In this document: positions 1 to 36,974 of the stretch, piece after piece
How positions within the stretch are numbered: the stretch's first letter is position 1
Layout: the number at the start of each line of letters is the position of its first letter
From: Carcharhinus longimanus
Taxonomy: Eukaryota
DNA: 60,677 nucleotides
NCBI GenBank assembly: GCA_030264375.1
Contig: JASCQW010000190.1
Coordinates: 94,235,050 to 94,295,726 of the forward strand
Direction: 5' to 3'
The notes under the pieces: generated by a model
Told to the model about the DNA's origin: nothing
Seen by the model: only the letters and a program-made list of their open reading frames with translations
Database searches by the model: none
Made by a program: the position numbers and the translations under genes

Positions 1-639
1 GGGGGGGGGGGGGGGGTCCGTTCTGCCTATGGAGGAGCAGTCAGGTCAGGTCGGGAGGGTAGTTGAGTCGGGTCAGAACAGTTGGGGCTGTGAAGGGAGG
101 TTGAGTCGAATCAACCTGTATTGGGTTTGCACGAGAGTTGGCGTGTCATATTGGGTTGGGTTGGCTCGGGCATGCAGGGGTAGGGTCAGGGGGAGGCTCA
201 GATTGGATCAGGTCGAGTGGGGCAGGTGTCAGGTCTGCAGGTTGGGGGAGGGCTAAATATCAGGGTGAGTTGGGCCTATGGAAGGGGCCCCCTGTCGGGT
301 ATAGAGGCTGATTTGGGTTGGGTTGGAGGCTGGGTGGTGGCTGGTCCTGTGCAGGCGAGTGGAATTCCATGGAGCTCCAGGGGTGTGGTTAGTTGGGAAT
401 GTGGNNNNNNNNNNGGGAGTCCAGTTTGGAGTGGTGGGTGGGGATGGCTTTGTGGTCTACTTACAATAGCTTCTCAGCAGTTAGAAGAGATTTTAATTCT
501 TGTAAATTTTTCTGATTAACTGCTGATGTAACCTGAAGTTTGCGATTGTTCACAGTGCAGGGAATTTGCCCAGAGGAAGTTTGCAGAGGGAGTTCCGAGA
601 GGGATTCCCCAGTGCTTCTTTAGTGTCAAAAGCTGCAGA

Positions 640-1250
640 CAGGTCCTGAAGGATGAGATAGGAAGCTTCATCACTGTCACAGTTAAATAGAATGTGATTT
701 GTGATGCTGTTTTGGTTATGTGTCACGGTGGAGGTTGTTGGAGGAATGCAAACGTGAAGTCCCAGGAAAGTTGAGCACAGTTAGGGGATTGACACATTCA
801 AGGATTTGGGAAGTGAAAGAGAGGTTGGATTGGAGATGGGATAGTGGTTTGCAAGGTCAGAGGAGTCAAGGAGTGTTTTTTGAGGAGAGTGGTGATGGCG
901 TAGATTTAAAGGAGGGACCTAACCTGATGAAAGGGAACCTCATCAGCTATCCTGGGCCAGGAGGAGAGGCTGGGGATACCAGTAGTGGGAACAGAATCAA
1001 AGGAATGGGCAATGGACAAGGTGAGTTTCGAGAGGACATAAAGAGAGATGGGAGAGAAACTAGAGAAAGATGCGAGCTCATAGCTAAGGAATGGTAGATT
1101 TTACAGGAAATTTGCCTGGTGGGTTAGTGGAAGGGAGAGTGTTGCAGAGGCAACAGACAATGGTCTCAGTCTCAAGTGACTGAGAATTTCATGAGCTCCT
1201 CATACTTACTGTTGGAGGAGAGATAGATGAGATGGGGTCAGGGGTTTGTC
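640..1250 (-). mobile_element. Degenerate L2-clade LINE RT fragment
   Basis: Minus strand gives remnants of the PLLKK..LD...L.NYRPISNL.F.SKILE motif (about 790-900). Confidence 0.55.
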
Positions 1251-1339
1251 AGTGTTAAGTAGCACCTAAATCTTTCTACTTCTATTACTGAGCCTGTCCC
1301 CCACTGCAGAGCATGACTTACGATGAGACTGAATCCGGG

Positions 1340-1993
1340 CCCAGCCTCCCCTCCTCCACTGCAGCCAGGGGTGTTTCACTCCAGTGGGATTTGCAACAGC
1401 TCCTAACTAGCGGGGAGCTGGAGGCCCAACCCAGCTGGAATGAAGCCAAGGAAGCCCACCAGGAGGTCGGGGGTAAGGGAGGTGTCCCCTGGGCAGTGCA
1501 AGCCTGGTCCCCTGGGAGTGCCCAAGAGGCAAAGTAGCAATTCCCAGAGGGCACCTTGGCACTGCCCACTGGGCATCAGGCAGTATCAAGGGGTTGGGCC
1601 CGAGGCCTATAAGGGAGGAGGGATCAGTGGAAATGGGGTGGGGTCCCACTGAAACTCTGCACTCAGCCGTGACAGAGGGAGGGAGGCCGGTGATCGGGGC
1701 TGGCCATTGGGATGGGCATGGGGAATGGGGAATTTGGAAATAGGCTCTGCTGGGGGGTAGGGGGGTAGATTGAGGTGGGCTGGGGGGAAAGGGATGCAGT
1801 GATCAGATGGTGGAGGTGTCGTATAGCCAGTGATCAGGAGGCCAGCAGTGTGGGACTACTGCACATGCACTGATCTCTGCTCTGATAGAACACACATGCA
1901 TAGTGGCCCACCCAGCACTATGCTGCTGGCCTCTCCAGCAGGAACTTTTATGCGAATTCGACACTTAGAATTTTTTGGGGAGAATCCCACCCT
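1340..1993. mobile_element. GC-rich non-autonomous DNA transposon (Harbinger-like MITE family)
   Basis: Internal similarity to 8850-9720 and 21165-22075; ends GGAGAATCCCACCC. Confidence 0.5.
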
Positions 1994-2544
1994 ATACATT
2001 GTTAAACGAGGTCTAACTGGGTTTTAAAGAAATCAACTAAGACCATAGTTACTGCTGAAAAATCTCTCTGACCCTAAAAACCTAATTTTATATTTGTGGA
2101 ATGTCACATTTCTTCACTATGATAAATTTCATATTTTTTTCAAAATATTTTTTACAGAGATTTCTATATAAGAGTCCAGCTTCCAGCTTTTTCTACCAAA
2201 TCATTTGTTTTATCTTCTGCAAAATATCGTTAAAAGTGAAGCATAATCAGTGAATTTTAGTCCCTAGCATTTTGTCTGTAGGAATACTTCAATGTGATTG
2301 GCCACCTACTTTCCTTCACTGTTGTTGAATGCCCAAAGATCCCTTTGACTTGTCGTCAGAATCAAAGTTATGTTGGGAAAGGGGTATCCATGTCATAGAG
2401 ATTCCTTGGTTTTGGGAGCAGCTTTCTTCAAGACCAGAGATAAGCAATGAATCTTTGTTACTGGCCACAAAGTCAGAATTATTCTTTTATATTGGCCCTG
2501 GGAGTGGGCAAACATAAAAGTGTGACTGAGCGGGGGGGGGGGCT

Positions 2545-2990
2545 CATCTAAGGCAGAAAGCTGTGGATTTAAGCCCCATTTTAGGGAATTGAGCCTATAC
2601 TCTGGCCTGACACGTCCATGCAATGCTGATAGGGTGCTGCAGTGTCAGAGATGCAATCTTTCAACTACACTGGTAACGAGAAGCCTTTTCAGCTATCTCA
2701 GTAGGAGTGTAACAGGTCTCAGTACGCTATTCATTGAAAAGCAAGAAAAGTATCAGGATCATCATTTAGCTTTCAACCAACATCAGAGATTTCCTGATCA
2801 TTTCTCCTTGCTGTTTATGGGATCTTGCAACTTGCAGATTCCCTGCTGACTTTCCCTATCTTTTTTGGTCCAACAATTAGGCCCCCTGCTGTCATGACAA
2901 AATTATAACAGTTCAAAAAATAATTAATTGGCTGTGAAATTCTTTAGAATGTTCTAAGATCATAAAAGGGACCATGTAACTGCAAATTAT
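2545..2990 (+). mobile_element. DeuSINE (SacSINE1/AmnSINE-like), old copy
   Basis: Deu-domain-like TTGCTGTTTATGGGATCTTGC and tail ATTGGCTGTGAAA..; related copies near 7860-8160, 8170-8410, 6420-6560 (-) and 44585-44950 (-). Confidence 0.5.
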
Positions 2991-3213
2991 CAAGTTTTAA
3001 CTCATTACCACCAATATATTTCCAGATGTTTCTGCCACAAAATTGGCAAAATCTGTTTTCCTCCCTATTTTTGTGGAAAACTCTAAAATTTTTCATTTCA
3101 TAAAATCATTCAGCAAAGCAGGTGACCATTTGGCACATACTCTCTGTAACAGTTCTTCCAGCTACCATAATGACTTTGAACTCTGTAAATCTCTACTTAA
3201 CATAAAGTGAAGT

Positions 3214-3478
3214 AAATGTTTAGTTATTAGTGACAACCAAGGCTTACATTAACACTGCAATGGAATTACAATGAAATTCCCCTAGTCGCCACACTCCAGC
3301 ACCTGTTTGATTCAGTGCACAATCAGACTGTGGGAGGAAACCAGACCACTTGGAGGAAACCCACACAGACACAAGGAGAATGTGCAAACTCAACATAGAC
3401 AGTGGCCCAAGCCGGGAATCAAACCCAAGACCCTGGTGCTGTGAGGCTTCATTGCTAAGCTCTGTGCTACCAGGCCAC
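3214..3478 (-). mobile_element. HE1-like tRNA-derived V-SINE (internally deleted)
   Basis: V-domain GGTTTCCTCCCACAGTC and tail ..CATTGCAGTGTTAATGTAAGCC. Confidence 0.8.
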
Positions 3479-3561
3479 TCCACTGGTCTAAGGAAACCAA
3501 CTGCACCCCATCCTGGTGGTAAATCTTCTCTCCATAGTCTTTACATCCTAAGTTTAAGGTT

Positions 3562-3841
3562 AAAAGTCCATTTATTAGTCACAAGTAAGGCATACATTAA
3601 CACTGCAATGAAATTACTGTGAAAATCTGCTTGTTGCCACATTCCGGCACCTGTTTGGGTCAATGCGCCTAACCAACACATATTTCAGAATGTGGGAGGA
3701 AACCGGAGCACCTGGAGGAAACCCACGCAGACACAAGGAGAACGTGCAAAGTTCACACAGACAGTGACCCAAGCCGTGATTTGAACCCAGGCCCCTGTCA
3801 TGTGAGGCAGCAGTACTAACCACTGTGCCACCGTGCCATCC
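3562..3841 (-). mobile_element. HE1-like tRNA-derived V-SINE
   Basis: Head GGCACGGTGGCACAGTGGTTAGTACTGCTGCCTCAC with A/B boxes; V-domain. Confidence 0.85.
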
Positions 3842-5397
3842 TTATTTGGAGCATTCATGTTGAAGTCCAGTGTGTCATGTGAGTGGAGTGTCCAAGTCTC
3901 CAAAATGGTATACATGCTCATCTCCAGCCACCTTGGAAGATCCAGGCCAACACTCAGATTGCTCAAAGCATCTTGCACAAAGATTCACAAAATGAAATGT
4001 CTCTATTCTTAACAACAACAAAATGCATTAAAAGTTTAGCCCATTATTAAAATATATTGGGCCAAATGTTCCTGAAAAAATAACAGTGTATTAGTGACAT
4101 ATGCCGTTATTAACATGCAAGCATGGTCAGGGAGTGAACAAATACGGTGTGAGTTGCAAATCTTCATATTGTGCTTGTTGATTTACACTGCTCTGCTGTT
4201 TGCCTTGCGAAAACAACTCCTCTCTCTTAACTTCCCCAATATTTATTTTCAGAAATGAATGCATCTGCACATTAATTTCCCTTTAAACTCACCACAGAAT
4301 GTTTAGGTTGATAGTTCACAGTGTAAGTATCCTTTCAACAGCATAATCTTCGCCTAATACAATAAAAATCAAACTGGCACAGAAGAGGATTGATTTAAAT
4401 CTCAGTAGTAAAGTCTTCATCGAAATGTCATTTTAATTTTTCTTTTTCTCTTTGGTGCTTTTTTTTCTCTCACTCAGTTCAATCCTTCTTTCCCTCTCAT
4501 TATTTGGCTTTCAGTGCATGATTTGAATTTAAATCACAATGTTTCTCTTTTGTTTTTGTTTCTTTTTTAGTCCTCAATAGTGAAGAACTAATCAATCCTG
4601 TCGATCTTGTCATTCCCGAAGATTCCAGATTCCCCCATCGACCTGGCTATGCCATTTATCAGCCCATGTTGCCAGCAAATTATGGGGAGAAATATCTTCA
4701 GGCTAAAGGCTGCAGGAAAAGATCTAACTAACGGGGCATGCTACAAGATACCACACTCCAGCAAGGTTTGTTTGACATACCTTTTTTTATTTCCAGTCAT
4801 CTGTTGATTTAATTTTTAAAAATTGTCTGTTTGAACAGTGGAAACTGATTGTTTTGGCTCAGTGAAAATACACATTGTAATTGGAACCACAACCATATAG
4901 ACACCTGTATAGAATGCCTACTATAAAAAGCACCCTTAATATAGCATGCTCTGATACCATATCGATCATTCACAGCTCTGCAAGAGGATTGCATATAAAA
5001 GCCTTCCATGTAAGAGATAGGCAATTACAATCATGCCTGCAGCCCATGCATACATGAAGTCTGAATTTTAGGTAAGAACTAAATTAATGTTCATTGAAAA
5101 CATTCATTTTCACTTTAATATTCTTTGGATAAATTGGCATTTTTTTTTAGAAATTATGAATAAATTCTAACATGTTTATAAAAGGGTTTAACACCAATTT
5201 CCCCATTACTCTATAATTATGAAATGATGGCAATCCGGATTACTGCTTCCTGAATTATTGTCCTTTAAACATAATACCCATTTATTCATAAAGTATAAGC
5301 TATTTTACACTTGAAAGACTCCAGTCCTGAACCCATCATGCTGACAACTTAGGGGAAAAAGTGTGAAACTGAAAAAGCTGAACACAAAGAAACTCAC

Positions 5398-5446
5398 CCG
5401 ACAAACCCCCGCCAATGATTATCACGTCTTGTTTTCCACTGGACAT
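5398..5446 (-). CDS. First coding exon of a flavin-containing monoamine oxidase (MAO)-like gene; remainder not found, presumably beyond window start
   Basis: Reads MSSGKQDVIIIGGGLS-G, then a perfect GTGAGT donor (phase 1). A at -3 and an in-frame upstream TAA. This is the FAD-binding GxGxxG start, with the intron at the position of MAOA/MAOB intron 1 (MAOB MSNKCDVVVVGGGIS-G). Only 16 codons are available. Confidence 0.7.
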
Positions 5447-6725
5447 TTTCACCTTATCAGCTTACACCTGCCTTTTGCGTAGATGACCTTCGATGTGGCT
5501 GCTTGCTGATTTCTGTTCTCTTTGTACAACTTGGTGGCGTTTGGCTCTAGGCTGCAACTAAATCAACCAGTGTTTGTTTGTATGGTCTGAGCTGCACCTG
5601 TTCATGCTTTAGACTGCCTGACACGGATGTACCTCTTTTATCACAGTGTGATGTCTCCTGCTCAGGAGGAGGGACCACTAACAAGATGGTTCTAGGTTAT
5701 GCATTCAATTCTTCGAGCGAAGAATCAAAAATGGAAATCTGATGTGGACAGATACAAATAAGAGCATCACATTTGAAAACAGAGAAAGGATAAAACAGAA
5801 ATATTGAATTACTTTACTCAGAGCTGTTAATTAAACCATATTCTGAGGTTCTTTAGTGGCCTGCATTTCGGATCACAGTGTTGAGCAGCTTAATGATTTA
5901 TTATTACTATCTAAGTTAATTCATCTATTGTAGGGATAGAAACCAGACATATTTATGTTTTATTGGCAAGAATCAACATATGTCTCAAAAGTTCCATGGC
6001 TGCGAGTATATGCTAGCTATATTCCAATAACACTACGTCGACCATTTTTAATAACTGTGTCATTTTATCTTCTCAGGTTGGTTTTATTTTTCTGGAAACA
6101 TGGAATCAGCTATTGTAAAGTATTTTTTCTTTTCACAGGGAACCAGTTGATAGACCCAATGAACATCGAGATGTTACAGCGCAGTATTACCAATTCATAT
6201 TATTATTTGAGTCAGCCAATAATATGTAAGTTGAATCTCAAAGATGATCAAAGGATGGTACAGTAAAAAACATTCATTGACACTGAAATTTTCAAAATTA
6301 CTTGTCCTGCATATTTATTACCATGTCCAACTGGGAATCAAAGATACTCTAGGGGGGAGCACATTGAAAGAGGGAAGTGAAAAAAATGGAAAATTATGAG
6401 TGAACTAAATTCCAAAACTTTAGTATGCCATCTGTCATTCCAAAGTACTTTACAATCAACTGATTACTTTTTAAGTGAAGTCACTGTTGTGCTGTAGGTA
6501 AACATAGCAGCCAATTTGCATGTAGCAAATGATCTGTTGGGATAAATTATAGGACAATCAGGACCCAATTTTAACTCTGTGGATGGGATTTTACAGTCTC
6601 ACGCAGACAAGACCGGAAATTCCTACCCAAGATCAACAGAGATTTCTGTTGCCGGACCCTTGCCCGCGCTGATTCTATGGTGGGCAAGGTGGAAAAGTTC
6701 CGATCTCAGTTTGTGAATGGATTTT

Positions 6726-12719: not shown

Positions 12720-12871
12720 TCACTTTAAGGCTGCTAGTTCCTGGAGGAGCTGTTCTTTCTCCCGCTGAAGTTCCAGGATGTGCTGTTTGTTCTGATCTAG
12801 GCGATCCTCCAGCCATTGCAGCAGAGGACCACTAATGGATGACATCTGGCTACACAGATTCTTCGTGAAAA
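12720..12871 (-). CDS. BRCC3: BRCC3 coding exon 8 (last)
   Basis: tctag acceptor; (V)FTKNLCSQMSSISGPLLQWLEDRLDQNKQHILELQREKEQLLQELAALK*; C-terminal coiled coil of BRCC36. Confidence 0.96.
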
Positions 12872-13440
12872 CTAGACATAAAAGATGAAAAGTCAGTCAA
12901 GAAATTTTAAAACCACATAGGGTATATTTCATGAGTGAATATTTTTGTACTGACAATATGCTAACAAATGTATAACTAATTCAGAGAAAATAAGTGTTAC
13001 AAATAGAATTCTAAAGCAATGTATGTCTCACCCTAAATTTAGCTCATTCTTACTTAAAAAAATGTTTAGAATTACACCGATGGAGTGATTTTTCACATTT
13101 TGTAAATGTCAGGTCAAAGAGCTCAATCATACTTTGTACCATTTATTTTAATTGGATCTATAATTTTACACAAAAATGGGAACATTACAGTAAAATACTG
13201 CTTCCCCATCCTCTTATTCTCATTTAATTCATCTGGTGGTATTTAATAATAGGATTGCTTCTGAGATGGCACTTTCCAGTTTAAGGTGCGTCACACCATA
13301 TGTCCAACAGCAGATAGTGAGAAAGTTTGCTAAATATCAGACTTCTCAAACAGATTTGGAAACCCTTTTCTCTGTTTTAAACTAACTTAAAGATAACTTC
13401 TGTAACACTGCCCTTTAAAAGCAAATACTCTATTGTATGA

Positions 13441-13660
13441 AAAACTGAAAATGCTGGAAAATCTCAGCAAGTCTGACAGTATCTGTGGGGAGAGAATACA
13501 GCCAAAGTTTTGAGTCAAGATGACTCTTCTGATGGAGGGTAATCTAGAATTGAAACATTGGCTCTATTCCCTCCCTACAGATGCTGTCAGACCTGCTGAA
13601 ATTTTCCAGCATTTTCTGTTTTTGTTTTAGATTCCAGCATCCATGGTACTTTGCTTTTGC
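13441..13660. repeat. Palindromic Penelope-derived terminal repeat (about 85-bp inverted arms)
   Basis: AAAACTGAAAATGCTGGAAAATCTCAGC... pairs with ...GCTGAAATTTTCCAGCATTTTCTGTTTT; single arms recur near 15620, 22465, 37200 and 53225. Confidence 0.7.
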
Positions 13661-15262
13661 ATACTCTACTATATCATTCGTTTGTGGAACTCACTAGTTA
13701 TGGACCTAATGGTGCACAGTCTCAGAACCCTTTTATACTCTATATCCAATCCATTACAAAAATCACGTATTTCAATTGGTAACATTACTTATTTCTATTC
13801 CTATTTCACCATCCTGATTTCCACTGAAACTCTCATCCATGTCTTTGTCAACTCAAGGTTCTCAACTTCTTGAATATTGTTCAAGCTTCACAGGTTGTAA
13901 TTCTGCCAGGGCTAGACACAAAAACTTTAGAATTCTGCATACTCCTTCAACATGCTGACCTCACTCCTCCTGCAACAATTAGCATTTGCTTTCCTGGGGT
14001 GGGATGGTGTTGCTAGGGTCCCGAGGGACATTACCTAACTAAATTTTGAATTTTTCAAACTACCTTAACAATAATTATCCTTTCCCTGCCAGTTAGAAAT
14101 TCTACTGGTAAACTCCATACAGTATGCTGGCACTTTTACTCCACCTTCCCCCAGTGCAACAGTGCCCTTCCCTTTGCCTTCATTTAAAAATGCAGAGTAT
14201 TCAAAGAAAGGATGAGCTTTGTTCACTATAATCACTTTGCATCAACAACAGTATTCAGATATAATATTAATCAATGATGAAGAAAGCATATCCAATAATG
14301 CATGACAGGCACACACTAAACAATTAATAATGAGCTCTACTTCAGGGAGGCAATTTCACAATGCACTCCATGTTTAACCTAGTGCTAGCAGTTCTACCGA
14401 TCAACTATAATTCTACAACTGTAATGTGACATACACTGCAATGTATCTGTGGCACAGCTCGAAATGTGCTCCAGACATATGGCAAANNNNNNNAACCTTT
14501 CCATCTTACTGAAAATCAGGCAGCCTTACAGCAGTATCTTACACCAGTTTCTTACACATTTTTCAATTTAAAAAACGTCAGCTTATGGCAGCAGTAACCC
14601 TTCAAGATCCCCTCAGTGCTGTTATCTGTAATTTTTGTCTCCTATATAGCAGTCTGGAGGTCTTGTAACACATTAGATAGTATCCTGCTTCTAAGCCAGA
14701 AGCCCCAGTTCAAGTTGTATTGATGGCCAAGGAAAGTGTATTCATAATGCCAACAAATAGGTTGGGTATCAACTTGTAAATCCATCCAAATATGGCAGTA
14801 AAGTGGGACAGATTCCTGATCAGCCATGTGATGGGAAGAAATTGGGACCTCTACCATCATTATCCATAGCTCCAGACTGCAAGATGCATGTACAAATGTA
14901 TATTGCCACAGCAACTCAGGATTCCTTGGAAAAGCTAGATTGCTAAGTTGGCTGGGCAGTGAGTATGGATGAGATTGGTATCAACAGCACGGCATTCAAT
15001 CCCCATTCTGGCTGGGAGCATTCAGCAATTATCTCCTTGCCTAACCCATGATGGAGGTTGTGGCACTGTGGGTCAGACCCGCCTTTGGACAGAGAAGTCA
15101 AGAAGAAGGAATATAAATTTCAGCTCATAGTTAACCATTCTTCCTACAGAAAACCTTTGTAAACTAAGGGCAAGGGGGAGAAAAAGACCCAATCTGTGAA
15201 ATAGCCATCTTTCATCTACATAGTTCTCCCCTTCTTATTATAGCTTCTCTAACTCTCTCATC

Positions 15263-15580
15263 ATAGAACCTCACAGAATCCCCACAATGCAGAAGGAAGC
15301 CATTCAGCCCATCAAGACTGCACTGACTGTTCGACAGAGCATCTACATCCATCACTCCTCCTCTTCCACTCCCCTAAACCATGGATAATCCATCTAATTT
15401 ACATACATTGGGACGCTAAAGGGCAATTTAGAATGACCAATCTACCTAGTTTGTCCATTTTTGGAGTGTGGAAGGAAACTGGAGCACCAAGAGAAAACCC
15501 ATGCAGACACCATGAGAATGTGCAAACTCCACACAGACAATCATCCAAGGCTGGCAGTGAATCTAGGTCCTTGCTGCCCA
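15263..15580 (-). mobile_element. HE1-like V-SINE with CR1-type tail
   Basis: V-domain plus tail ..GGGATTCTGTGAGGTTCTATG. Confidence 0.75.
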
Positions 15581-15812
15581 GGGTCATAGACACAGGTCTC
15601 CAACTATACTCTTCAATTACGTAAAAGCAAATTACTGCAGATGTTGGAATCTGAAACGAAAACAAAATACTGGAAAATCTCATCAACTCTGACAGCATCT
15701 GTGGAAAGAGAACAGAGCTAACTTTTCAAGTCAGGGTGACGTCAATTATGAACTTAATGTGCACTTTTTTTTGTTAAAAATATGGTTTTGGAGGCACAGA
15801 GCCATTATCTAC

Positions 15813-15856
15813 CTGATCCATTGTGAATCTTGGTTATAGGGTCCAGATGTGTCAGG
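15813..15856 (-). CDS. BRCC3: BRCC3 coding exon 7
   Basis: tttcag..gtagat; (S)LTHLDPITKIHNGS; phases match neighbours. Confidence 0.95.
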
Positions 15857-16739
15857 CTGAAAGAAATGGTAGAGAGTTTCAGCTTATGGAGAGCTTTCCA
15901 TTGGATACAAACATCTATTGACAGCAAGAAAGTAAACTAGATGAATAAACTTTGCACATACAAAAACAAGGCAAAGGGCACAGTATAATCTAGTAATCCA
16001 CCTGAAAATCATTATTTTGTTTCCAACAATACAAACACCAATAAATAAAAACAAATTAAGGTGGGAGACGAGAAAGCAGATTAACCGAGTCTTCTGCTAT
16101 AGGGAGAGGAATATCTCAGGATTGTTCGTACAAGAGATAATGAATCCAACTGATGCTTGTGACAGTTACAGAGTTGTTAGTATCATCAATTGCTTTTAAT
16201 TTGGCTTCTAAATAATGGCTTCAACAGAAGTATTCTGTTCAAAAACTCTGGAATTTCAGATTGAGAAATGTTTTGTAGACATGAACAGTACCATCATATA
16301 TTTTCACTGGAATATACATTAGTTTTGATTACATCAAATAAAAAAAAATTGGGTTAACTGAATCAGGATCATAGTGTTTGATTATTGTAAGAAGAGAAAG
16401 ACTGGATGATCCACTGAGCTACTGGCTGCCCTTTCACTCTGGGGGAGGGGGGCGCAATGGAGTTGGGCCCAAATGTACATNNNNNNNNNNNNNNNNNNNN
16501 NNNNNNNNNNNNNNNNNNNNNNNNNNNNNNNNNNNNNNNNNNNNNNNNNNNNNNNNNNNNNNNNNNNNNNNNNNNNNNNNGGATGGGGTGGGGGGGGGCA
16601 AAATTCACTGTCTGAAAGCCATCAATCGTATCAAGTAAATAGGTCTTGGCAGTCCCAACCACATACAAGTGAGCTTGAATCTTCAGCAAAAAATAATTAA
16701 TTCAGGTTCTAATAATCAAACATAAATCTGATGCCGATG

Positions 16740-17100
16740 AGGAGGTGGTGGCATCATGGCATTGTCACTGGACTAGTAATCCAGAAACCCAGGGTAATGC
16801 TCTGGGGACCAGAGTTTGAATCCCACCATGGCAAATGGTGGAATTTAACTACAATAACAACACCTGGAATTAACAGTCTAATAATAACCATGGGACCATT
16901 GGTTCACTAATGTCCTTTAGGGAAGGAAACCTGCCATCCTTACCTAGTCTGGCCTACATGTGATTCCAGATTCACAGCAATGTGGCTCTGAAATATCCTC
17001 TGAAATGGCCCAGCAAGCCACTCAGTTCGAGGACAATTAGGGGTGGGCAGCAAATGCTAATAACCTTGCCAGAGATGCACATATCCCATGAAAGAATAAA
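16740..17100 (+). mobile_element. tRNA-derived SINE whose tail matches a CR1-superfamily LINE 3' end
   Basis: Head with GTTTGAATCCC B-box; tail CAATTAGGGGTGGGCAGCAAATGCT..CCCATGAAAGAATAAA shared with 48355-48870. Confidence 0.65.
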
Positions 17101-17569
17101 GAAAACAAAGGTTTAACTCAACACTAATTTCAGTTTATTGTTAATCATCTAGCTTACTGATATGATAAAGTGATAAAGAGGGTGATCTTGAAACATATGC
17201 ATTAGCACACTGTTGGAGCAAATTATCTGTATCTGACCCATCTTATACTTGGTTTTCAGGTTCTTGATGCTAGGCTGCAAATTAGCATTGCAGCATTAGC
17301 ATCATCTGTTTGATAAGTGAATTAAAATGTTTGTATAAAAACAAGTCAACAAAACCATAATGCCGCTGACAAAATCTTAATCACTTCTATGATATGCAGA
17401 AGGGAATAAAGTGCAATCCTTTAGTTTGCACTATAATATAGATTCCTTTACAGCACTGACCTCAGTGTTTTTTCTCCAGAGTGATAATGCATCCACTCAA
17501 CAGAACTGAAGGACTTCATTGACAATTGGTCACATATATAATATATAAACACACATATACATAAATTCA

Positions 17570-18470
17570 ACATAGGAAGAGGACCAGGTCAGTTAGTCTC
17601 CAAGCCTTTTCCTCCATTGAATGAGATCATGGCGATTTGTGACCTAACTCCATATACCCAGTTTTGCCTCATAACCCTTCATGCTTTTGGTCCACAAAAA
17701 TCTACCAAATTTAAAATTAATACTTGATCTATATATGGGAGTCGATTAGCCCAGTTGGCTGAATGGTATAGAATGATATAAATGACACATATACAATCCC
17801 CATACTGGCTGTGATAGATTACAGAAGCCTTCCCTTTTGCCTTGTCCCATTATTAACATGGGAGTGGTGCTCCTCAAGCTATGGTGAACAATGACTAATT
17901 CTTTAATTGATCTATCATCAACTGAAGTTTGTGCAAGGAAGTTCCAAATTTGTACCATTCTTGACATGAAGAAATGCTTCCCAATTTCACCTCTAAAAGT
18001 TCTGGCTCTAATCTTTTGACTAATCTCCTTAACTCCAAACTTCCTGACTAGAGGAAATTGTTTTTTCCCAATCTATCCTCTTTGTTCCTCTTATACCTTG
18101 AAAACTTTGATCAAAACAACCCTCAACCTCTAAATTCTAGGGGACATAATCCTAGTTTGTGTGATCTTTCCTCATAATTTAACTTTGGGACAAGGCATCA
18201 TTTTAATAAATCTATGCTGCATTTCTTCCATAGGCTAATATATCCTCCCTAAGGCATGACATTCAGAAATGCTCATTGTGTTCCAGTGTGATCTAAACAA
18301 AGCTTCACATAGCTGAAGCATGTCTTTTAATCCATTGTATTCCATTCCTCGTGATATAAAGGCCATCATTCCACTAGTTTTGTTGATAATTTTCTGTACC
18401 TGTTCATGACATTTTAATGATCGGCATACCTGGAAGCCAAAGTTTCTTTAGACCGCCATTGTTTCTACCT
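17570..18470 (-). mobile_element. CR1 LINE 3' fragment (interrupted by a short SINE near 17735-17890)
   Basis: CR1 3' UTR and C-terminal ORF2 remnants. Confidence 0.6.
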
Positions 18471-18526
18471 AGTCGCTAGTTAAATAGTGTCAAATACTCA
18501 AAGTTACATCTCATTTCTAACTTTAC

Positions 18527-18658
18527 CTGTGAATTCTTCTGTAAGCATCCTGCTCCTCTTGACAAAGAATTTTTGGAAGTTCCACAGCAGACTCCAGACA
18601 CACTTTACCAATGGTTTCATGGGGAACAACATGAATAGGGATTTCTATGCGTTCATAC
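18527..18658 (-). CDS. BRCC3: BRCC3 coding exon 6
   Basis: tacag..gtaaag; YERIEIPIHVVPHETIGKVCLESAVELPKILCQEEQDAYRRIH. Confidence 0.96.
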
Positions 18659-19063
18659 CTGTAATCAAATTATCAAAAGGTTAGTGAGATTTGGACAATA
18701 TCCTAGCCTATAAGCTTAGGTCAAGTACTTTATACTTGTATGACCCCCAGATTAAATTACAGCTCTACTAACTTCTATGTATTCTGAAAATTAAATCTCT
18801 GTAAATTGATATTGTTTTCTCCACTAATTGGTTATCTCACACAATGTTCACACCCTGACAGAGAAGGCAAACGGTCAGCTCCCAGCCTTTTTGAAAAGTA
18901 CTACGAGGACATATGCATGCATGGGCCAAATGTCCGACTTTTCCATTACTTCCACTTAGCATTTTCCCATACTTATAACATTAATCGTCTCATATTAAAA
19001 ACGATGGTCCTCAGTTTAAATTATTTTCATTAGAGTAACATACTTAGTATACATTATACTTAC

Positions 19064-19119
19064 TCAGAACCTTTCTGTGCTTGAATTGACTGGAAACAGG
19101 TATAGAGAACTCGGCCAGT
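19064..19119 (-). CDS. BRCC3: BRCC3 coding exon 5
   Basis: tttcag..gtaagt; TGRVLYTCFQSIQAQKGS(E). Confidence 0.96.
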
Positions 19120-19814
19120 CTGAAAAAACATGTAAAAAACATATTCTTTAATCCTGCTGCCTAATTTTTCTATTGTCTTCTTACTTTAAACCACAAATCC
19201 TTCCAACTGGTGCTTTTTACAATAAGAGCTACCGTAAAATTTAGGTGAAATTCAATTAACTATTCACATCCTGAAGCATGAATCATAATAATTTTGCAGG
19301 AAAGCACTCATGCCTTAATTAAACTTATTCTGAAATCAGCCTCTCTCTTTATGAGCATATATTCAAATCTAAGCTAGACTGAAGGGATAAATGTGGCTTT
19401 TACCTTTGGTAGCAGTAAGGTATGGATGTGAAACACATTTGGATCAGTATCAACCCAAGTCCACAGCATGAAACTAGCAATAAATCGTTACAAATTGGCA
19501 ATCATGCTCATCAATGCAACAAGGAGGATTTGTCTGGGCAACATTATATTGTTGCAACAGATAGTCCTTTTTTAAGCTTGGATTTTGAAAAATTAATTCA
19601 AAGCATGTGAACGTCATGGGCAAGGACTGATTTATTGCCCATCCCAGAAGGTGGTAGTAATTCTTCTTAAACTAACTGCAGTCCATGTGGTGATATTACT
19701 CCCATATTGCTGTCAGGTAGGTGGCTCCAGTGATGATGAAAAAACCAACATGTTTTGTTCTGAGCTCAGTTGATGTCACTATTGAACAGTGTTTCTTTGG
19801 AGTATACAAGGACA

Positions 19815-20445
19815 TCCAGTCATGAGTCCACCATTAGCACGAGATTTCAATGATGTAGTGGCAATGGATCAAAAGATATGGAGCAGTGACAAAGACAGCT
19901 ATCTATTGCACTTTGTGGACATGGCCACCCAGTTTAGCCTATCTACGGTGATTTACAACAAAGATAAAAAGACCATTATAGATAAAATTCTGGATTTAAA
20001 CAGGATTGGGGACACCATCTAAATTTTTGACGGTGAATTCGCAAATGATGAGTTTCAAGGTGTGTGTGAAAATTTAAATATTGTAATAATGCAAACTGCA
20101 GCAGAGAGCCCATTCAGCAATGGGCTCTGTGAAAGGGATCACGCAGCTACAGATGACATGGTGCATAAAATTTTGGTGGATCAACTGGGCTGTAAATTGC
20201 AGGTTGCATTACCATGGGCAGTGCATTCGAAAATTCTTTATAGATGGTGGGGGGCCCTGCGGAGAAACATATAGTCCATACCAGTTGGGTATGAATCTAA
20301 AATTGCCATCAGTATTAACAGATGCTTCTCTGGCACTAAAAGGGTCACACATTAGCTCCATGTTTTTGGCAGATTTTAACACTATGCACGCAGGGAGAAA
20401 GGTCCTCATTAAGGCCGAGGTTTCAAAACGGGCAAGAAGGGCCCT
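19815..20445 (+). mobile_element. Decayed retroelement integrase (rve/DDE) fragment
   Basis: FNDVVAMD..LHFVDMAT..GEFANDEF..TAAESPFSNGLCER..SPYQL, broken by frameshifts. Confidence 0.75.
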
Positions 20446-21164
20446 TACTCCAAACTTGGGGCCTTGCCCTGGGCCTATCCAAGCTCCCCACAATTCCCAA
20501 CAGGTTCTTATTTGTAGTGATATTATTCATATCTGTGAACTATACCTATATCTATTGAACTATATTTATAGTTCTTATTTATAGCTAACTGTGGTCAGAC
20601 AATACCCCACACTGAAACCAAGTGGCAGATGCCATCCAATTGAGCTTCTGTAGATTTCTCCTCAAATCCTCCAGATGATTATTATACTGTGAGTCAATTG
20701 ATCTCAATGGACTCTGGCTTTCACTTGAGACTTGCCAAACTCTGCTCTTGAAAAGACACACCTTAAAACCTCCTTTTAAACAATGTCTTCCCTCAACTAT
20801 TTCCAACAAGGATCCATTTACAGAATTTGCAACTTCACTTTCAGTATTTCTTTGAATAACTGCAAGCTTTCAAACTTGCACATAACCTTTCAGGGATCTA
20901 GCCACCAATTGCTTCAACTTTAACTTCACAGGCTATACTAAGTTACCACCAATTTCAGGAATGCTTCTGATATCTCTAGCTTTACTTCAGTGTTCCTGGA
21001 CACTTCTCTTAATTCTCTAGTTTCTATGACTATTCTTTAGTTTCTGGTACCTGCATTTTTGCACATTACTCCACTGTTCTGCATGTAACAGGGCAGAGAG
21101 AGCAGTTCTGTCCAGCTGTTGAGCTCCTTCTGTCAGGGTCCAGTTAAACCAAAAACATTGGGGG

Positions 21165-22075
21165 GGCGGGGGATACAATTCTTCCAGCCCGCTGCGCTAA
21201 TTTTTTAGTGTCCAGTTCTGAGCATGTCTCCCAGCGCCGGATTTCCAGCATTGAGCTGCATTATATTTCAGACCCTGATTTTAAAATGATTTAAATATAA
21301 TTAGTGGGCCCAGGACTGAAGTCTTCAGGCTCGCTAGCCTCTCCTCACCTCTGCCAGGATTATTTCACTCCAGTGGGTTTATTATAGGTCCCACTAACGG
21401 GGAGCTGACGGCCCAACCCCGCTGGAGTGAAGGGGGCAACTGAGGCCCCCCAGAGGGTCAGATGTTGGAGGAGAGACCCCTGACCATTGCTACATTGACA
21501 GTGCCAGCCTGGGCCCCCTGCACTGTCCAAGGGGCAAAGTGCCAATGCCCAGGGGCACATTGCCCCTTTGCCTGGTGAGCAATGCCAATCAGTGGGGGAC
21601 GGTGTCCTGCTGCCACTACAGTTGGGGGAAGGAGAGAGGCCAGCGATTGGTGGGTGGGGTCAGCAATATGGTGAGGGGTGAAGTCGAGGTGGACTGGGAG
21701 GATGAGGTCAAAGGTGGTCCGGAATGTTCGGGGGGCCAGCGATCAGGCTATGGGGGGCTGAGAGGGTCAGCACTGCGTAGTCGTGGGGATGGCCAGTAAT
21801 TGGGAGGCTGGCAGACAGACGCCACTATGCGTGTACTGACCTCGGCTTTGACAGATCGGTGCGTGCACAGTAGCCCAGTCTGCGCTATGCTGTCAGTCTT
21901 TCTAACAGGAATAGGCCCCGTCCACTGATTTTTAATGAGATTTATGCTAGCGCATCTGCAGTACAGAGTGTGGGAGATTCATTTTGAAAATCCCACTGAA
22001 AAAACTGGCGTGGTTTACTCCAGTATTCATGCAAATTCAATATTTGGAATTTGTTTGTGGGATTCCTCTCCAGTT
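21165..22075. mobile_element. GC-rich Harbinger-like MITE family copy
   Basis: Shares TTTCACTCCAGTGGG..CGGGGAGCTG..GGCCCAACCC.GCTGGA.TGAAG with 1365-1446. Confidence 0.5.
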
Positions 22076-22650
22076 TTTTTCTTAAAGGTGGCCCATGGTT
22101 GCTATGCAACAGCTCATTCTTTCTCCAAGCTCACAACATAAGCACAATAGAGACACAGACGTGCAAACACCTTTGTTTAACATAGAGTATTTTCTTACCC
22201 AGAAAAACTAAATTAAACTCACTTAAATCCATACCTTACTTCTGATACCCAACAGTACAAACGTAGGTTATTTAAAACTGCCTTGGCTTTCTGACAGTTT
22301 CTAAGTCAGGATGGAATTTATTGACAAGAGATTTTTCTTCACTAAACTTTCATTTCGGTCTGTCTGGCAACAACAATGCTGTTCGTCAACAGCCACTAAA
22401 GGGCAAAAGCAGGTCAAATGATTTTCTCTACCATCCTTTGAAAAAGTAGTGAACCATGAAAATAAAACCAAAATACTGAAGATTCTGCAGATCACAAATA
22501 AAAACAGAAAGTGCTGGAAAAGCTCAGCAGTTCCATGGAGAAAGAAACAGAGTTATGTTTCAAGTCCAATCTGACTTTTTTTCAGAAGCAGTAAACCGCC
22601 ACTGGCTGCCACCAAAAGGACACACATTAGAGTAAAGAGCTGGTACGTAC

Positions 22651-22739
22651 CTTGGTATTCTTGTCCTCAATGAAACAGGAGAAGATCAGCCCTACAAAGC
22701 CCTGGTCCATCATCTGGTACATGGCCTGAGTACGGACAT
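22651..22739 (-). CDS. BRCC3: BRCC3 coding exon 4
   Basis: gtcag..gtacgt; (D)VRTQAMYQMMDQGFVGLIFSCFIEDKNTK. Confidence 0.96.
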
Positions 22740-23599
22740 CTGACAGAGATAACAGAGAATATAAAGAAATTGATCATGTTTGCTTCTTGAATAGATTGAT
22801 TGTGTAAATTGAACTGGCAAGGAAACTAAATGTACTCCAAACCATTCCAGCAAAAAGACATTAACAGTTAGGATCTGAATTGGTATATTACAGACTTAAG
22901 ACAAATTTTACTGGCAAGGTGCACTTCTATTATGACATAATGCATAATATCCGAAGGGCTAACATAACTGTCTGCCCTCATGCAGACAGTTACTGTTAAA
23001 ATCCTTAAGGAAATATATCCACTCCTGCAAAATGAAAAGCAAAGGACCAATTTTCTCTTTTAAGCAGACTCAAACAAAACACTGTGAGATCACAGAAGCC
23101 CATGCTGCATGACAATATTAGAAACCAAAGTCACTTAACAAATTTAAGCCACTGGATAAAGCTCCCTGACGACTTTGGGGTAAAAACCATCCAAAATGCT
23201 TAGTAAAATGTGAAAAGCCTTTTGGTTTATCTAGTTTATTTTTAAATGGAAGCATCCGTATGTCTCTTTGATAACATGAGTCCACTTGACCCAAAGATTC
23301 CAGATTCTGTTCTGATTTTGCCAGTCTTTGGAATCAATGGGGATACTTCAACTAGGTTGTAAACCACAAAGCCAGGCAGGAAGAAGAAAATACAAATAAG
23401 TGATCCTCTGTAAGTACACGTGCTCCGGACAATTAGCTAAGATACAAAAGTCAATTTTTTTTTCAACTTCTATTGAAGATGATAGGAAATACTGGAAGGT
23501 GTGCACAACGAACATTCAATCCACAATGCTAACATCAACATCTGTCAGTGAACGTTAAAAGTCTATCTCACAGTGTCCTAGCTCATACATAAAAATAAT

Positions 23600-25465
23600 T
23601 TATTTGAGTAAGGTATCAGAAGAATGCTATGGGAGGCGAAGCAAGAAATTGCAGGGGTTCTGACACAAATTTTTAATTTCTCTCTGTCCACGGGGGAAGT
23701 GCCAGACAACTGGAGGACGGCTAATGTGGTTCCACTTTTCACAAAGGATGGTAGAGATGAACCAGGCAATTACAGACCGGTGAATCTCACATCAGTGGCA
23801 GGAAAATTATTGGAGAAAATTCTGAAGGAGGGGATTAACCTCCATTGAAAAGACATGGGTTGATTAGGGATAGTCAGCATGGCTTCGTCAGAGGAAGGTC
23901 ATGCCTAACAAATTAGAGAAACTTCTTCCAAAATGTAATCAACTCTGTTGATGAGAGGAGTGCAGTTGATGTAGTTTATATGAGTTTCAGCAGAGCTTTT
24001 GACAAGGTCCACATGAGACACTGATTGAGAAGGTTGAAGCACATGGAATTCAGGGAAATTTGGTGAGATGGATCCAAAACTGGCTTAATAATAGGACACA
24101 AAAGGTGGTGGTAGAAGGCTACTTGAAGGTAGAAGGCTGGTGTCCACTGTCATACCATAAGGTTCAGTGCTGGGTCCCTATTATTTGTTATATACATAAA
24201 TGATACAGATGTGGAGGAAATAATAAGCAAGTTTGGAGTTGACACCAAGATTAGCACTGTATGAAATGAAAGCGAGGGTCAATGTATTTGTGGATATGTC
24301 AACCGACACAGAATGGCAAATTTAGGGTATTAGAAGTTTTGTCATTTCAGTGTTCAATTTATATGAAGGTCGTGGATTTATTTGGAGTGGCAATTGTTGG
24401 NNNNNNNNNNNNNNNNNNNNNNNNNNNNNNNNNNNNNNNNNNNNNNNNNNNNNNNNNNNNNNNNNNNNNNNNNNNNNNNNNNNNNNNNNNNNNNNNNNNN
24501 NNNNNNNNNNNNNNNNNNNNNNNNNNNNNNNNNNNNNNNNNNNNNNNNNNNNNNNNNNNNNNNNNNNNNNNNNNNNNNNNNNNNNNNNNNNNNNNNNNNN
24601 NNNNNNNNNNNNNNNNNNNNNNNNNNNNNNNNNNNNNNNNNNNNNNNNNNNNNNNNNNNNNNNNNNNNNNNNNNNNNNNNNNNNNNNNNNNNNNNNNNNN
24701 NNNNNNNNNNNNNNNNNNNNNNNNNNNNNNNNNNNNNNNNNNNNNNNNNNNNNNNNNNNNNNNNNNNNNNNNNNNNNNNNNNNNNNNNNNNNNNNNNNNN
24801 NNNNNNNNNNNNNNNNNNNNNNNNNNNNNNNNNNNNNNNNNNNNNNNNNNNNNNNNNNNNNNNNNNNNNNNNNNNNNNNNNNNNNNNNNNNNNNNNNNNN
24901 NNNNNNNNNNNNNNNNNNNNNNNNNNNNNNNNNNNNNNNNNNNNNNNNNNNNNNNNNNNNNNNNNNNNNNNNNNNNNNNNNNNNNNNNNNNNNNNNNNNN
25001 NNNNNNNNNNNNNNNNNNNNNNNNNNNNNNNNNNNNNNNNNNNNNNNNNNNNNNNNNNNNNNNNNNNNNNNNNNNNNNNNNNNNNNNNNNNNNNNNNNNN
25101 NNNNNNNNNNNNNNNNNNNNNNNNNNNNNNNNNNNNNNNNNNNNNNNNNNNNNNNNNNNNNNNNNNNNNNNNNNNNNNNNNNNNNNNNNNNNNNNNNNNG
25201 TCCCCTCGAAAGCTTGTGAGTTTACTATCAAATAAATCGGTTGGACTAAAACCTGGTGTTGTCAGACTTTTTACAAGGTTATGGAGGCCAGGAACCTTAC
25301 AACCTTTAAAAAGTATTTGGATGAGCACTTGAAATATCATTACATTCAAGGATATGAGACAAGCGCTGGAAAATTGAATTACCATGACTTTACGAATAAT
25401 TATTGTTGGCGCAGATTCGATGGGCTGAAGGGGCTTTTCTGCGCTGTACAATTCTATGGTTGTTA
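23600..25465 (+). mobile_element. CR1 LINE (RT region and 3' end) spanning an assembly gap
   Basis: WRTANVVPLFTK..PGNYRPVNLTS..SQHGF..SRAFDKV..GSVLGP..DTKI before the gap; CR1 3' end after it. Confidence 0.8.
24401..25199. other. Largest assembly gap (others near 405, 14488, 16481, 28453, 31592, 47219, 52759, 54973)
   Basis: Runs of N. Confidence 0.99.
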
Positions 25466-25594
25466 ACAACTTTGGCATTAAGGAGAAAAGGGGAGAAAAG
25501 TCTTCACTAGCAGGGGATATCTACTCTCTTAACTGCTCACATAGATCACCATAGCTTCACTGTTACTTGATAACTAATTCAATCATTTACTTAC

Positions 25595-25682
25595 CCACAT
25601 GTGAAGGCCATACTGTGATATGAGGGTGAGAATGATACCATCCTACCACTCTCATTGGGCGACCAGTCATTTCAGCTAACCT
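25595..25682 (-). CDS. BRCC3: BRCC3 coding exon 3 (JAMM motif)
   Basis: AC acceptor..gtaagt; RLAEMTGRPMRVVGWYHSHPHITVWPSHV; with the next exon gives the intact HxHx7Sx2D JAMM Zn motif. Confidence 0.96.
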
Positions 25683-26867
25683 GTGCGAGTTGTCAAAGAT
25701 CATAAATGAAACCTCTGCCGCATAAGCTTTAAGCGATGCATCTTCGAATCATAAAATCACCTTCCCAGAATCCTGCAAATTCATAAACTCGATATAATGC
25801 AAACCTCCCTAGAATCCTCTGACATCAAAGCGCATCAAAAAATATGAATTTCTCCTAATCCAAATAGAAAAACAGAAAAATAAGGTTGTGAAGGAATATT
25901 ATGATTTAAAAAGACATTTTCCTGTCTCATCTCAGTAGCTTCTAGTTAAATAGGCAAGATTAAATTTGTTTCATACATTGATATAGCAGCATGGAGGGAG
26001 ATTTACTCTTCATCTGCTAGTAATTTGAGTCTGCATTCAACTTCAAAACCCACATGTAAGACTAACATTCTTTTATCCTTATTAAGAACCAAGAATTTGG
26101 TGTTGTAGAAGTGGGGGGTGACATTTTGAAGCAGATCACATCCTTTCTCAGATTTCTTGTCAGTGGAGCTATGTTTCTAAACTCAGTGGGCCCAGCAGTA
26201 GTATACCAATGCATCCCTATCAGCTACTACTTTCAGCTGTTGCTCTGCTGCACTACTACTGACATTTAAATGACAATTTTCCCTCTCATTCTTGTCCAGG
26301 CTTTCTTCTCCGATTTTTTGAAGTGAGCAGGGTAGATACAGGGAGAAATGCAAATTCAGCAACAGCCAGCACTAAAATCAAAGCAGTCACTGAAATTTCA
26401 TAACAATAATGGAGTGGAATACACTAATGGGAAGACACTGTATGAAATGAAAGCAAGGGTCAATGTATTTGTGGATATGTCAACTGACACACAATGGCAA
26501 ATTAAGGGTATTAGAAGTTTTGTCATTTCAGTGTTCAATTTATATGAAGGTCGTGGATTTATTTGGAGTGGCAATTGTTGGTTGCCTTGTACCTGAGTAA
26601 AAATGGTTACAAATACTATTATCTGACCTCAGACTGTTTCACAAGGCAATGGGGGAAGCAAGCTTTACTCTTCATGTAACCTGAATTTATCCGATCTTGG
26701 TCTGCTGAACAGAACATTGGCTGCAAAAGATCCTTATTTCTGAGCATTTAGATGTCTCATCTTGATAATTTTTTTTAAACTATGGTAATGTATTGCTAGC
26801 CAATTAAAATGTGATCATACATGAATCTCAGAGTCTGTCCTGATAGTAATCTTTATGGAAAGGATAT
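25683..26867 (-). other. BRCC3: U12-type (minor spliceosome) AT-AC intron of BRCC3
   Basis: 5' end ATATCCTTTCC; branch-like TCTTTGAC ending 9 nt before the end of the intron (..GCAC); only this junction keeps the AE|RL frame. Confidence 0.92.
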
Positions 26868-26987
26868 CTCAGCTTCAGTAGAAGCTGCAGAAAGCTGCTC
26901 TGGAGAAATTTCCACACGATCCTTGCGTTTGTCTGAACGGCGAAGAATGATGACAGAATGAATATGAACTATTCTGCTTGTGTCAAC
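26868..26987 (-). CDS. BRCC3: BRCC3 coding exon 2
   Basis: tttcag acceptor; VDTSRIVHIHSVIILRRSDKRKDRVEISPEQLSAASTEAE. Confidence 0.96.
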
Positions 26988-27639
26988 CTGAAACAAAAAT
27001 GAAGAAGTTAATTACCTTCTGTTTCATTATAGCATATTAAAGGGAATTGGTGGCAAACTGAGTTAGAACATTATCTCTTATCCCTGGAAGCTGGTCTCAT
27101 GTCCAGCCAGAGAAAACAGATTAAAATTTTATGTCTGCTGACTGTGAGCTTTTGCTGTTCTAATTAAACTTGAGATGATTGTAGAAATGGAAATGTCACA
27201 CAAGTGCAATGCAGAGTGATCTACCGAGATTCCAAATAATTGGAGTATTGGAGTAAGATAGAGAGACCTCTGCATCCTATTCATGTTATACCTGAGTGAT
27301 GCTGATACTGATTAGCTAAAATGAAAGTATTCTGTTACCCTATTGGCAACATGCTTCAGAACCAGGTAAACATAACACAAAAACACTATCGATGCTGTAT
27401 TTCTCCAATCAATCATTTGGCAGAAGTGTTGCCATGTGGCAAAAGACTGGGCTTCCATTAATCTTGAGGTTTATTTATTCAGTGTGTGCAGTCACAGAGC
27501 CAAGCAACAGCCTTGTAAATGGCTAGATGGAGTTCCTTAAGCCCTTCAAGTTTAGTCACTGGATATTCCTCAACCATAAAAGATAAATGAAAGAATGAAA
27601 AATATTAGATCTTGAGCAGTCTTGTCAGGACAAGTGTGA

Positions 27640-27925
27640 AAGGCATATTTCTGTAGTGGGAAAATCTACAATAGGGCCTATTTAGCAGGTGAGGAGAAAT
27701 ATTTTCCTCTAAGAGGGTTGAAAGCCTTTGGAACTCTCTTCTCAAAAAGCAGTGAAAACAGAGACTGAACATTTTAGGGCAGAGCTAAATAAATTTTTGG
27801 TAAACATGGGTTAAAAAGTAATGAGGGGCAAGTGGGAATGCGGAGTTGAGGTTCCAATCAAATCAGCCATAATCTTATTGAATGGCAGAAACAAGCTTGA
27901 GGAACCAAATGGTGTACTCCTACAA
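27640..27925 (+). mobile_element. CR1 LINE 3' end, old
   Basis: ..ATCAGCCATAATCTTATTGAATGGCAGAA.. tail. Confidence 0.6.
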
Positions 27926-28696
27926 CTTGTTCATATGGCAATGTGAATCTTTGTTTGGGCCACACCATAGCTGCAGCTGGGAAGGTATTGGTGACCCAAT
28001 AATATTACATGGCTGTACAGAAGCCATGGCCGGTCTGGAAAGCTTAGAAGGGCCCACTATTGCCATGGGAGGTCAAAGATGGGCAGTGGGGTCTAGGATG
28101 AGAGTGGTTTCTGGTGAATGTTTTCTCCTGCCATAGATCCTCAGTGTAGTGGGTTTAACCATACAGGCTGCTATGATGGAAGGCATACTGCTTATGGATT
28201 GAAGAGGTCATTCAATAAGGACAGTTGGAGTAGAACTTCTCTAGTACCTTCCCTGGTGCAATTAACCCTTTAACATATGGAGGCAAGGGTGACAATGTTA
28301 TTGAGGACTGGGAGATGGGGGAGGTGAGTTGGCTGAAGAGTACACGATAGTGCACATTGTTAAGTTGCATGTCGACAACTTTGGTGTGGACAGATTGGTA
28401 GTACATTCATGCACAGTATTCTTGTAGTGAGTATGTGATTGGGGGGGGGGGCNNNNNNNNNNNNNNNNNNNNNNNNNNNNNNNNNNNNNNNNNNNNNNNN
28501 NNNNNNNNNNNNNNNNNNNNNNNNNNNNNNNNNNNNNNNNNNNNNNNNNNNNNNNNNNNNNNNNNNNNNNNNNNNNNNNNNNNNNNNNNNNNNNNNNNNN
28601 NNNNNNNNNNNNNNNNNNNNNNNNNNNNNNNNNNNNNNNNNNNNNNNNNNNNNNCAGATTTGGGCACCTTGTCTTTCAGTGGTCATGTTGTGGAAA

Positions 28697-28809
28697 TGCC
28701 GGTGTTGGACTGGGGTAAGCACAGTAAGAAGTCTCACAACACCAGGTTAAAATCCAACAGATTTATTTGGCAGCACTAGCTTTTGGAGTCTCAAGCTCCT
28801 TCATCAAGT
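28697..28809 (-). mobile_element. Short Penelope-associated repeat with a decayed hammerhead-like core
   Basis: TTGATGAAGGAGCTTGAGACTCCAAAAGC..AATAAA..GTTGGA..AACCTGGTGTTGTG; related 3' half at 25200-25275 (+). Confidence 0.55.
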
Positions 28810-29029
28810 AAGATTTCTTTCAGCGGTCAGCAGCTTTGCAATAGTGTCATTTAGTGTGCCTTCCAACTCAGGGTACATCTCTCAGCTAATATGTTACAGC
28901 AGATGTTATCTGCAAAGATAAACTTCAGGGATTGGGTTGGAGGTAGACCATTGTTGTACAAGGTGGTTGGAGTTAAAACAGAGACCTGGGCTTGCCCTTT
29001 CTTCAGGTTCTAATTTTGTCACCCTATGC

Positions 29030-29490
29030 ATTCGAACCACCTGTCCCAGACTAGCAGTTCAATGGGATCAGTAACCAAGAGGGGGAGAAATCTTGAAGTT
29101 CAGGTGGTTGATTGAGAGAATCTTGGAGGAAGTACCCAAAAATAGTTTGTCCCTATTGGATTGAATCTGGATATTATAGTTATCTTGCAGTTCCTGGAAA
29201 TATTTCTACAGCACTGACCAAAAGGAGAGCAGCTGAGTAAGAACAAAGCTGGTGATAAGGTGCAGTGGGAAGATCAAGTCTAAGAGCAGGAGGATTTGGA
29301 GCTGAGCGAGAGCAGAGCTGGAGGAGGAGCAGAGTTTGCTAAAAGGTATAATGGCAGAGCAAAGGTGTGGCCAGAAGGATCACAGGCAAAAATGGGATGA
29401 GTGAGGTCAAAGTCAGTGCAGAGAGCAAGAAACAGCAGAACCTGAAGGAGCCAAGATCAGTGTCAAGGGCAAATATGAGCTAAGAATTTA
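29030..29490 (-). mobile_element. Degenerate L2-clade LINE fragment
   Basis: Purine-rich plus strand; LRSAERLWRK-like remnant on the minus strand. Confidence 0.4.
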
Positions 29491-36937: not shown

Positions 36938-36974
36938 TCCTGGTGTTATCAGTACAAATCTATATATATCAGAA

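Follow-up and report, generated by a model that had tools for sequence, protein, structure and literature searches.

A probable MAO F gene beside BRCC3, CMC4 and FUNDC2 in Carcharhinus longimanus and its likely origin by genome duplication

MAO F was described in 2025 by Merello Oyarzun et al. in Genome Biol Evol (PMC11833248), and a preprint (10.1101/2024.08.20.608864) gives the same account under the name MAO C. An earlier paper, PMC10244343, is credited in PMC11833248 with a hint of the MAO F clade; its passages on "MAO" hold no statement of a MAO F lineage. According to PMC11833248, MAO F arose in the jawed-vertebrate ancestor through what is termed only "a duplication event", carries CMC4 and BRCC3 on its 5' side, an arrangement conserved in cartilaginous fish, and was lost in the tetrapod ancestor, being absent from all tetrapods. 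It has also been kept in coelacanth, lungfish, bichir, sturgeon, gar and early-branching teleosts, in coelacanth and lungfish without the conserved neighbourhood, and the list given in that paper includes no MAO F for later-branching teleosts. MAO A/B, which has GPR34/GPR82 and NDP/EFHC2 as neighbours, is present in sharks as a single gene, with no tandem pair (PMC11833248). The tarpon, the only species whose MAO F was assayed according to PMC11833248, has a mitochondrial MAO F that carries out the FAD-dependent deamination of six amines, releasing H2O2, and that is inactivated by clorgyline and untouched by deprenyl.

The stretch of Carcharhinus longimanus DNA analysed here (60,677 nucleotides, hereafter the window) carries FUNDC2, CMC4, BRCC3 and then MAO F exon 1, in this order. 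In the initial annotation, a monoamine oxidase-like exon in this neighbourhood had been read as a possible additional MAO paralogue from a vertebrate genome duplication. The exon is real and the inference of a MAO paralogue is correct; as MAO F, the gene has already been published together with its neighbours and biochemistry. We regard it as very probable that this is the first exon of MAO F, likely a mitochondrial outer-membrane FAD amine oxidase (acting on amines such as serotonin, dopamine and tyramine) and likely a whole-genome duplication sister of MAO A/B that dates from early jawed vertebrates. Three features tie it to the published MAO F: the exon 1 peptide, which agrees at 14-16 of 16 residues with the four shark and skate accessions compared from the list in PMC11833248; the position of BRCC3 and CMC4 5' of the gene; and a cartilaginous fish as host. 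No separating feature was found. In the published arrangement the GABRA3/GABRB4 region lies on the 3' side of MAO F, which in this case would be beyond window position 1. The locus is one more shark MAO F, ordinary in itself and adding little beyond confirmation. The earlier suggestion that the gene was kept in sharks and lost in mammals stands as far as its presence in the former and absence from the latter are concerned, but the loss had already occurred in the tetrapod ancestor and fishes other than sharks keep the gene too (PMC11833248). Likewise, the contrast that had been drawn with a tandem MAOA/MAOB pair does not apply to sharks, which have a single MAO A/B (PMC11833248).

The coding part of MAO F exon 1 is located at 5398..5446 on the minus strand (49 nt, phase 1; MSSGKQDVIIIGGGLS plus one G) and is followed by GTGAGT, the splice donor of intron 1 (5392..5397, minus), which was read both in the sequence and from the contig breaks in sequencing runs X1, X2 and X3. 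The start ATG occupies 5446-5444, with an A at -3, and an in-frame TAA is found upstream at 5464-5462 with no other ATG between them. Every detail that had first been reported for this exon, i.e., its 49 nt, its end at G|GTGAGT and the upstream in-frame stop, held when the minus strand was read again. The 49 nt represent the coding part alone; exon 1 is likely longer by a 5' UTR (5447..5474, minus), because the X2 and X3 contigs, which come from another organism and are guessed to be RNA, match as far as 5474 and 5471, respectively. The exon codes for the first strand and for GxGxx of the FAD-binding GxGxxG loop, which is N-terminal in flavin monoamine oxidases (PF01593) and reads here GGGLS, followed by G at the phase-1 junction.

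When a full shark MAO protein was compared with the window by tblastn, 20 of 21 residues were identical at this exon (E 3e-6) and this was the sole match under E 0.8, which argues against a chance match. The window has a single instance of a pattern of start, aliphatic strand, GxGxx and donor, and none of 300 first-order Markov resamples contains it, a weak control given that the pattern was taken post hoc from the feature itself. Pfam assigned no family to the 41-aa stop-to-stop frame around the exon. No second MAO exon was found at 1-5397 by tblastn with six MAO proteins, so that intron 1 (1..5397, minus) is longer than 5.4 kb and extends past the window edge. The proteins of several relatives begin 3-5 codons further upstream (MVK, MAK or MDTVK, as does the loose end of the X1 contig). 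In the window, the minus strand at 5447-5464 has non-ATG codons at the start positions of these relatives and an in-frame stop just before, which indicates that the Carcharhinus longimanus copy has a short N-terminus.

Splicing at the exon 1 donor was seen in contigs of other organisms whose RNA status is guessed. Four of nine listed runs were compared with window positions 4300-6500, and none of the nine is on record as RNA; X1-X4 had a small word share and were guessed to be RNA, and X1, X2 and X3 represent other organisms (two organisms, from two studies). The X1 contig matches 5396-5450 and continues with 1170 letters unlike the window, the X2 contig matches 5396-5474 and continues with 69 such letters, and the X3 contig matches 5396-5471 and continues with 479. 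In each case the match runs two bases past 5398, to 5396, as expected if exon 2 begins with GT. The X6 contig spans 5380-5764 and reads straight across the donor. Independently of these runs, 8 of 16 public MAO models that were inspected have a different N-terminus joined exactly before LSAA, and these foreign N-termini mark the same exon boundary. The earlier claim that exon 1 of MAO A/B ends at the same position is borne out by an identical length and boundary and by these models, broken exactly before LSAA.

With regard to the identity of the exon, a protein search with the 41-residue frame returned a lone match (one of nine candidates), a sawshark amine oxidase of 524 aa that is identical at 20 of 21 residues with a weak E value of 0.47. 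This sawshark protein matches PF01593 and the human MAO A/B structures with E of about 1e-255, and its cluster includes XP_032886353.1, which is listed in Table S1 of PMC11833248 as the new lineage, MAO F ("MAOC"). Of 19 cartilaginous MAO F proteins, 15 match the exon 1 peptide at 14-16 of its 16 residues (six of the 19 at 16/16) and the other four are without it; of 18 MAO A/B proteins, 17 share only 10-13 residues and the other one is without the peptide, and identity over the exon thus splits F from A/B without overlap. Gln6 and Leu15 of the peptide occurred in 15/15 MAO F proteins scored and in 0/17 MAO A/B proteins.

A tree was built from 61 of 186 fetched proteins, comprising cartilaginous species with both copies, some tetrapods and the PMC11833248 accessions. 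Left out were fragments, duplicate isoforms, lamprey, amphioxus and the majority of the teleost and mammal rows; the tree was rooted at its midpoint and is effectively unrooted. In this phylogeny, a MAO F clade (26 rows) and a clade of MAO A/B, MAO A and MAO B (35 rows) were split with support of 100/100, and all 8 rows labelled MAO F and all 5 labelled MAO A/B in the paper fell on the expected side. As the window holds 16 of about 520 codons, the placement is that of the best matches of the exon rather than of the gene itself; these matches sit in the MAO F clade with the PMC11833248 accessions (100/100). MAO A/B and tetrapod MAO A and MAO B belong to the same family (about 67-73% identity to sawshark MAO F) and share the exon 1 boundary and the catalytic residues, but form a separate clade on another chromosome with other neighbours. 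The exon 1 peptide, the split between the clades and the BRCC3-CMC4-FUNDC2 neighbourhood all agree with the proposal of an extra MAO paralogue outside the MAOA/MAOB lineage. The exon 1 peptide is absent, or partly or wholly replaced, in the public models of cartilaginous MAO F from Mustelus, Carcharodon, Hemiscyllium and Scyliorhinus torazame (4 of 19), probably through failure to detect the 49-nt exon; this short exon is often overlooked or replaced in public shark gene models.

The neighbouring genes were placed by motif, Pfam and tblastn searches, and the presence of BRCC3-CMC4-FUNDC2 beside the MAO exon, as initially described, was confirmed by the Pfam families, tblastn and the FUNDC2 identities. 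BRCC3 (12720..32356, minus) has 8 coding exons with the Pfam families JAB and BRCC36_C; it is encoded on the same strand as MAO F, with 7.3 kb between its stop and the MAO F start downstream. CMC4 (35183..37830, plus; Pfam CMC4) has two coding exons and is divergent from BRCC3. Exons 2-5 of FUNDC2, a FUN14 gene, lie at 46038..57138 on the minus strand (exon 1 was not located) and are identical to Mustelus FUNDC2 at 143 of 145 residues. It had been considered that this gene might really be FUNDC1; its identity to FUNDC2-labelled proteins from nine cartilaginous fishes is 93-99%, in a comparison that includes no shark FUNDC1, and to percomorph-type teleost FUNDC1 it is 70-75%. The eight shark and ray proteins other than that of Mustelus account for 93-97%, and the value for sharks, 95-99%, identifies the host as a shark. 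A shark FUNDC1 for comparison was not found among the 35 FUNDC matches or the cluster members listed (15 of 26 in the shark cluster). In a quick 37-row FUNDC tree, where labels are database names, the window row fell among the shark FUNDC2 rows, and a 12-row clade with all 9 percomorph-type rows labelled FUNDC1 was set apart (SH-aLRT 100). A Polypterus model labelled BRCC3 joins FUNDC2 exons to BRCC3 exons, which is likely an annotation artefact and a sign that both genes are close together on one strand there too.

A genome duplication took place in the jawed-vertebrate stem, and human FUNDC1 is adjacent to EFHC2-NDP-MAOB-MAOA. Taking into consideration this timing and the ohnologues FUNDC1 and FUNDC2 that flank the two MAO loci, MAO F is likely to be an ohnologue of MAO A/B that arose by genome duplication, and the ancestral FUNDC-MAO linkage suggested in the initial annotation is likely as well. 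FUNDC1 and FUNDC2 have been reported as strict ohnologues (PMC5526904), and the window represents the FUNDC2 end of that pair; the main text of PMC5526904 contains no MAO, BRCC3, CMC4 or EFHC2. In 10/10 comparable cartilaginous species, FUNDC2 and MAO F are on contigs of equal size, which indicates the same chromosome and not adjacency, and in tarpon the two genes have consecutive locus tags (MATL_G00166890/900). Eel proteins named "FUNDC1-like" are likely misnamed, because the Anguilla cluster-mate groups with FUNDC2 and has an accession two numbers from that of eel MAO F. A Conger "FUNDC1-like" protein, on a contig whose size is shared with a MAO entry, was considered as a case of FUNDC1-MAO A/B linkage and rejected, given the grouping of the eel cluster-mate with FUNDC2.

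Alternatively, MAO F could have originated from a small-scale or segmental duplication followed by transposition. The main text of PMC11833248, in which a term search found no FUNDC, WGD, whole-genome duplication, ohnolog or paralogon, would be compatible with such an event, as would the different neighbours of MAO F in lungfish and coelacanth. We nevertheless regard a small-scale origin as unlikely, at perhaps one chance in a few, since the FUNDC2 gene beside MAO F is reported as a strict ohnologue of FUNDC1 (PMC5526904), zebrafish has a FUNDC paralogue on chromosome 9, where its MAO A/B is also located, and GPR34 is labelled at both loci in the Fig. S1 text of PMC11833248, of which the layout is uncertain; the timing also fits the jawed-vertebrate genome duplication. 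In the open-access literature, no paper on GPR34/GPR34-like synteny in sharks and no ohnologue statement linking monoamine oxidase or MAOA to FUNDC or to sharks was found; supplementary ohnologue tables of genome papers lie outside this search and may list the pair. The likely origin by genome duplication is the sole part of this account that is absent from the literature searched. If true, tying MAO F to the FUNDC1/FUNDC2 block would supply a mechanism and a date for the duplication that PMC11833248 leaves unexplained. On balance, we favor a history in which a block of FUNDC and MAO, two genes of the outer mitochondrial membrane, was doubled to give FUNDC1 with MAO A/B and FUNDC2 with MAO F, tetrapods then deleting the MAO at FUNDC2 and re-duplicating the other in tandem, and in which the deprenyl resistance and slow turnover of tarpon MAO F may not extend to sharks, where the gate is mostly Phe/Leu.

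In a Rossmann fold, the first strand and the glycine loop bind the FAD pyrophosphate, and exon 1 supplies this strand and loop. Judged from the residues of its relatives, the product would be an amine oxidase of the outer membrane with a specificity like that of MAO A; such an enzyme is likely because residues equivalent to human MAO A Cys406 (FAD-linked), Tyr407 and Tyr444 (the two-Tyr cage), Lys305 (at the O2 site) and Phe208 are retained in 19/19 cartilaginous MAO F proteins. The second gate residue is Leu in 15/19 of these proteins and Met in 4/19 (three skates and Heptranchias). In tarpon, the gate of MAO F is Phe/Met, and MAO A/B has Leu at the second position (PMC11833248). The Phe/Leu gate of most cartilaginous MAO F proteins therefore suggests that the tarpon Phe/Met gate is not general among MAO F and, being that of tarpon MAO A/B, that the tarpon inhibitor data may not carry over.

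By analogy, MAO F of Carcharhinus longimanus is presumably intact and would work as in tarpon. It is very unlikely that MAO F has become a pseudogene here, with this first exon as a remnant. Although the window holds no downstream MAO exon (all would lie beyond position 1) and MAO F was lost in tetrapods and is not listed for later-branching teleosts (PMC11833248), the start, frame and donor are intact, the peptide is identical at 16/16 residues to 6 relatives, none of the substitutions listed for the X6 relative (40 of 43) falls within 5398-5446, and full-length MAO F proteins are found across sharks and rays.

The possibility that the exon is exon 1 of an ordinary MAO A/B gene, with a FUN14 gene that is really FUNDC1, is already largely refuted and has very little probability left. 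MAO A/B exon 1 does agree in length and boundary, and the peptide is matched at 13/16 by one unnamed A/B protein. Nonetheless, Gln6 and Leu15 are F-specific in the compared set; BRCC3 and CMC4 are the published neighbours of MAO F, NDP/EFHC2 being those of A/B; and the FUN14 gene groups with the shark FUNDC2 labels, away from the FUNDC1 clade. In place of the GPR82 and NDP-EFHC2 neighbours and the peptide type of MAO A/B, the window has BRCC3-CMC4-FUNDC2, Gln6 and Leu15. This is also not the only MAO to be expected in such a genome, as the initial annotation had considered: a second MAO is present in sharks and rays on a separate contig, MAO A/B being on a different contig from MAO F in 8/8 cartilaginous species. 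Least probable of all, to the point of being negligible, is an exon of another GxGxxG flavoprotein: a PDB search with a 22-aa stretch gave assorted weak flavoprotein matches other than MAO (best E 0.55), including protoporphyrinogen oxidase and thioredoxin reductases, but the peptide matches MAO F proteins exactly at 16/16, N-terminal residues included, and lies in the MAO F neighbourhood.

Apart from the MAO F exon, the window has a few features of its own. BRCC3 intron 2 (26867-25683, minus) is of the AT-AC minor-spliceosome type, with the donor ATATCCTTT, a branch-like TCTTTGAC and the acceptor AC; a U12 intron in BRCC3 is common to human and Arabidopsis (PMC2831892). A fragment resembling a LINE reverse transcriptase was found at 23612-23848, along with many SINE-like repeats, from the ORF list, and a LINE-type reverse transcriptase fragment (RVT_1, E 2e-17) is located at the window end, at 60168-60677 on the plus strand.
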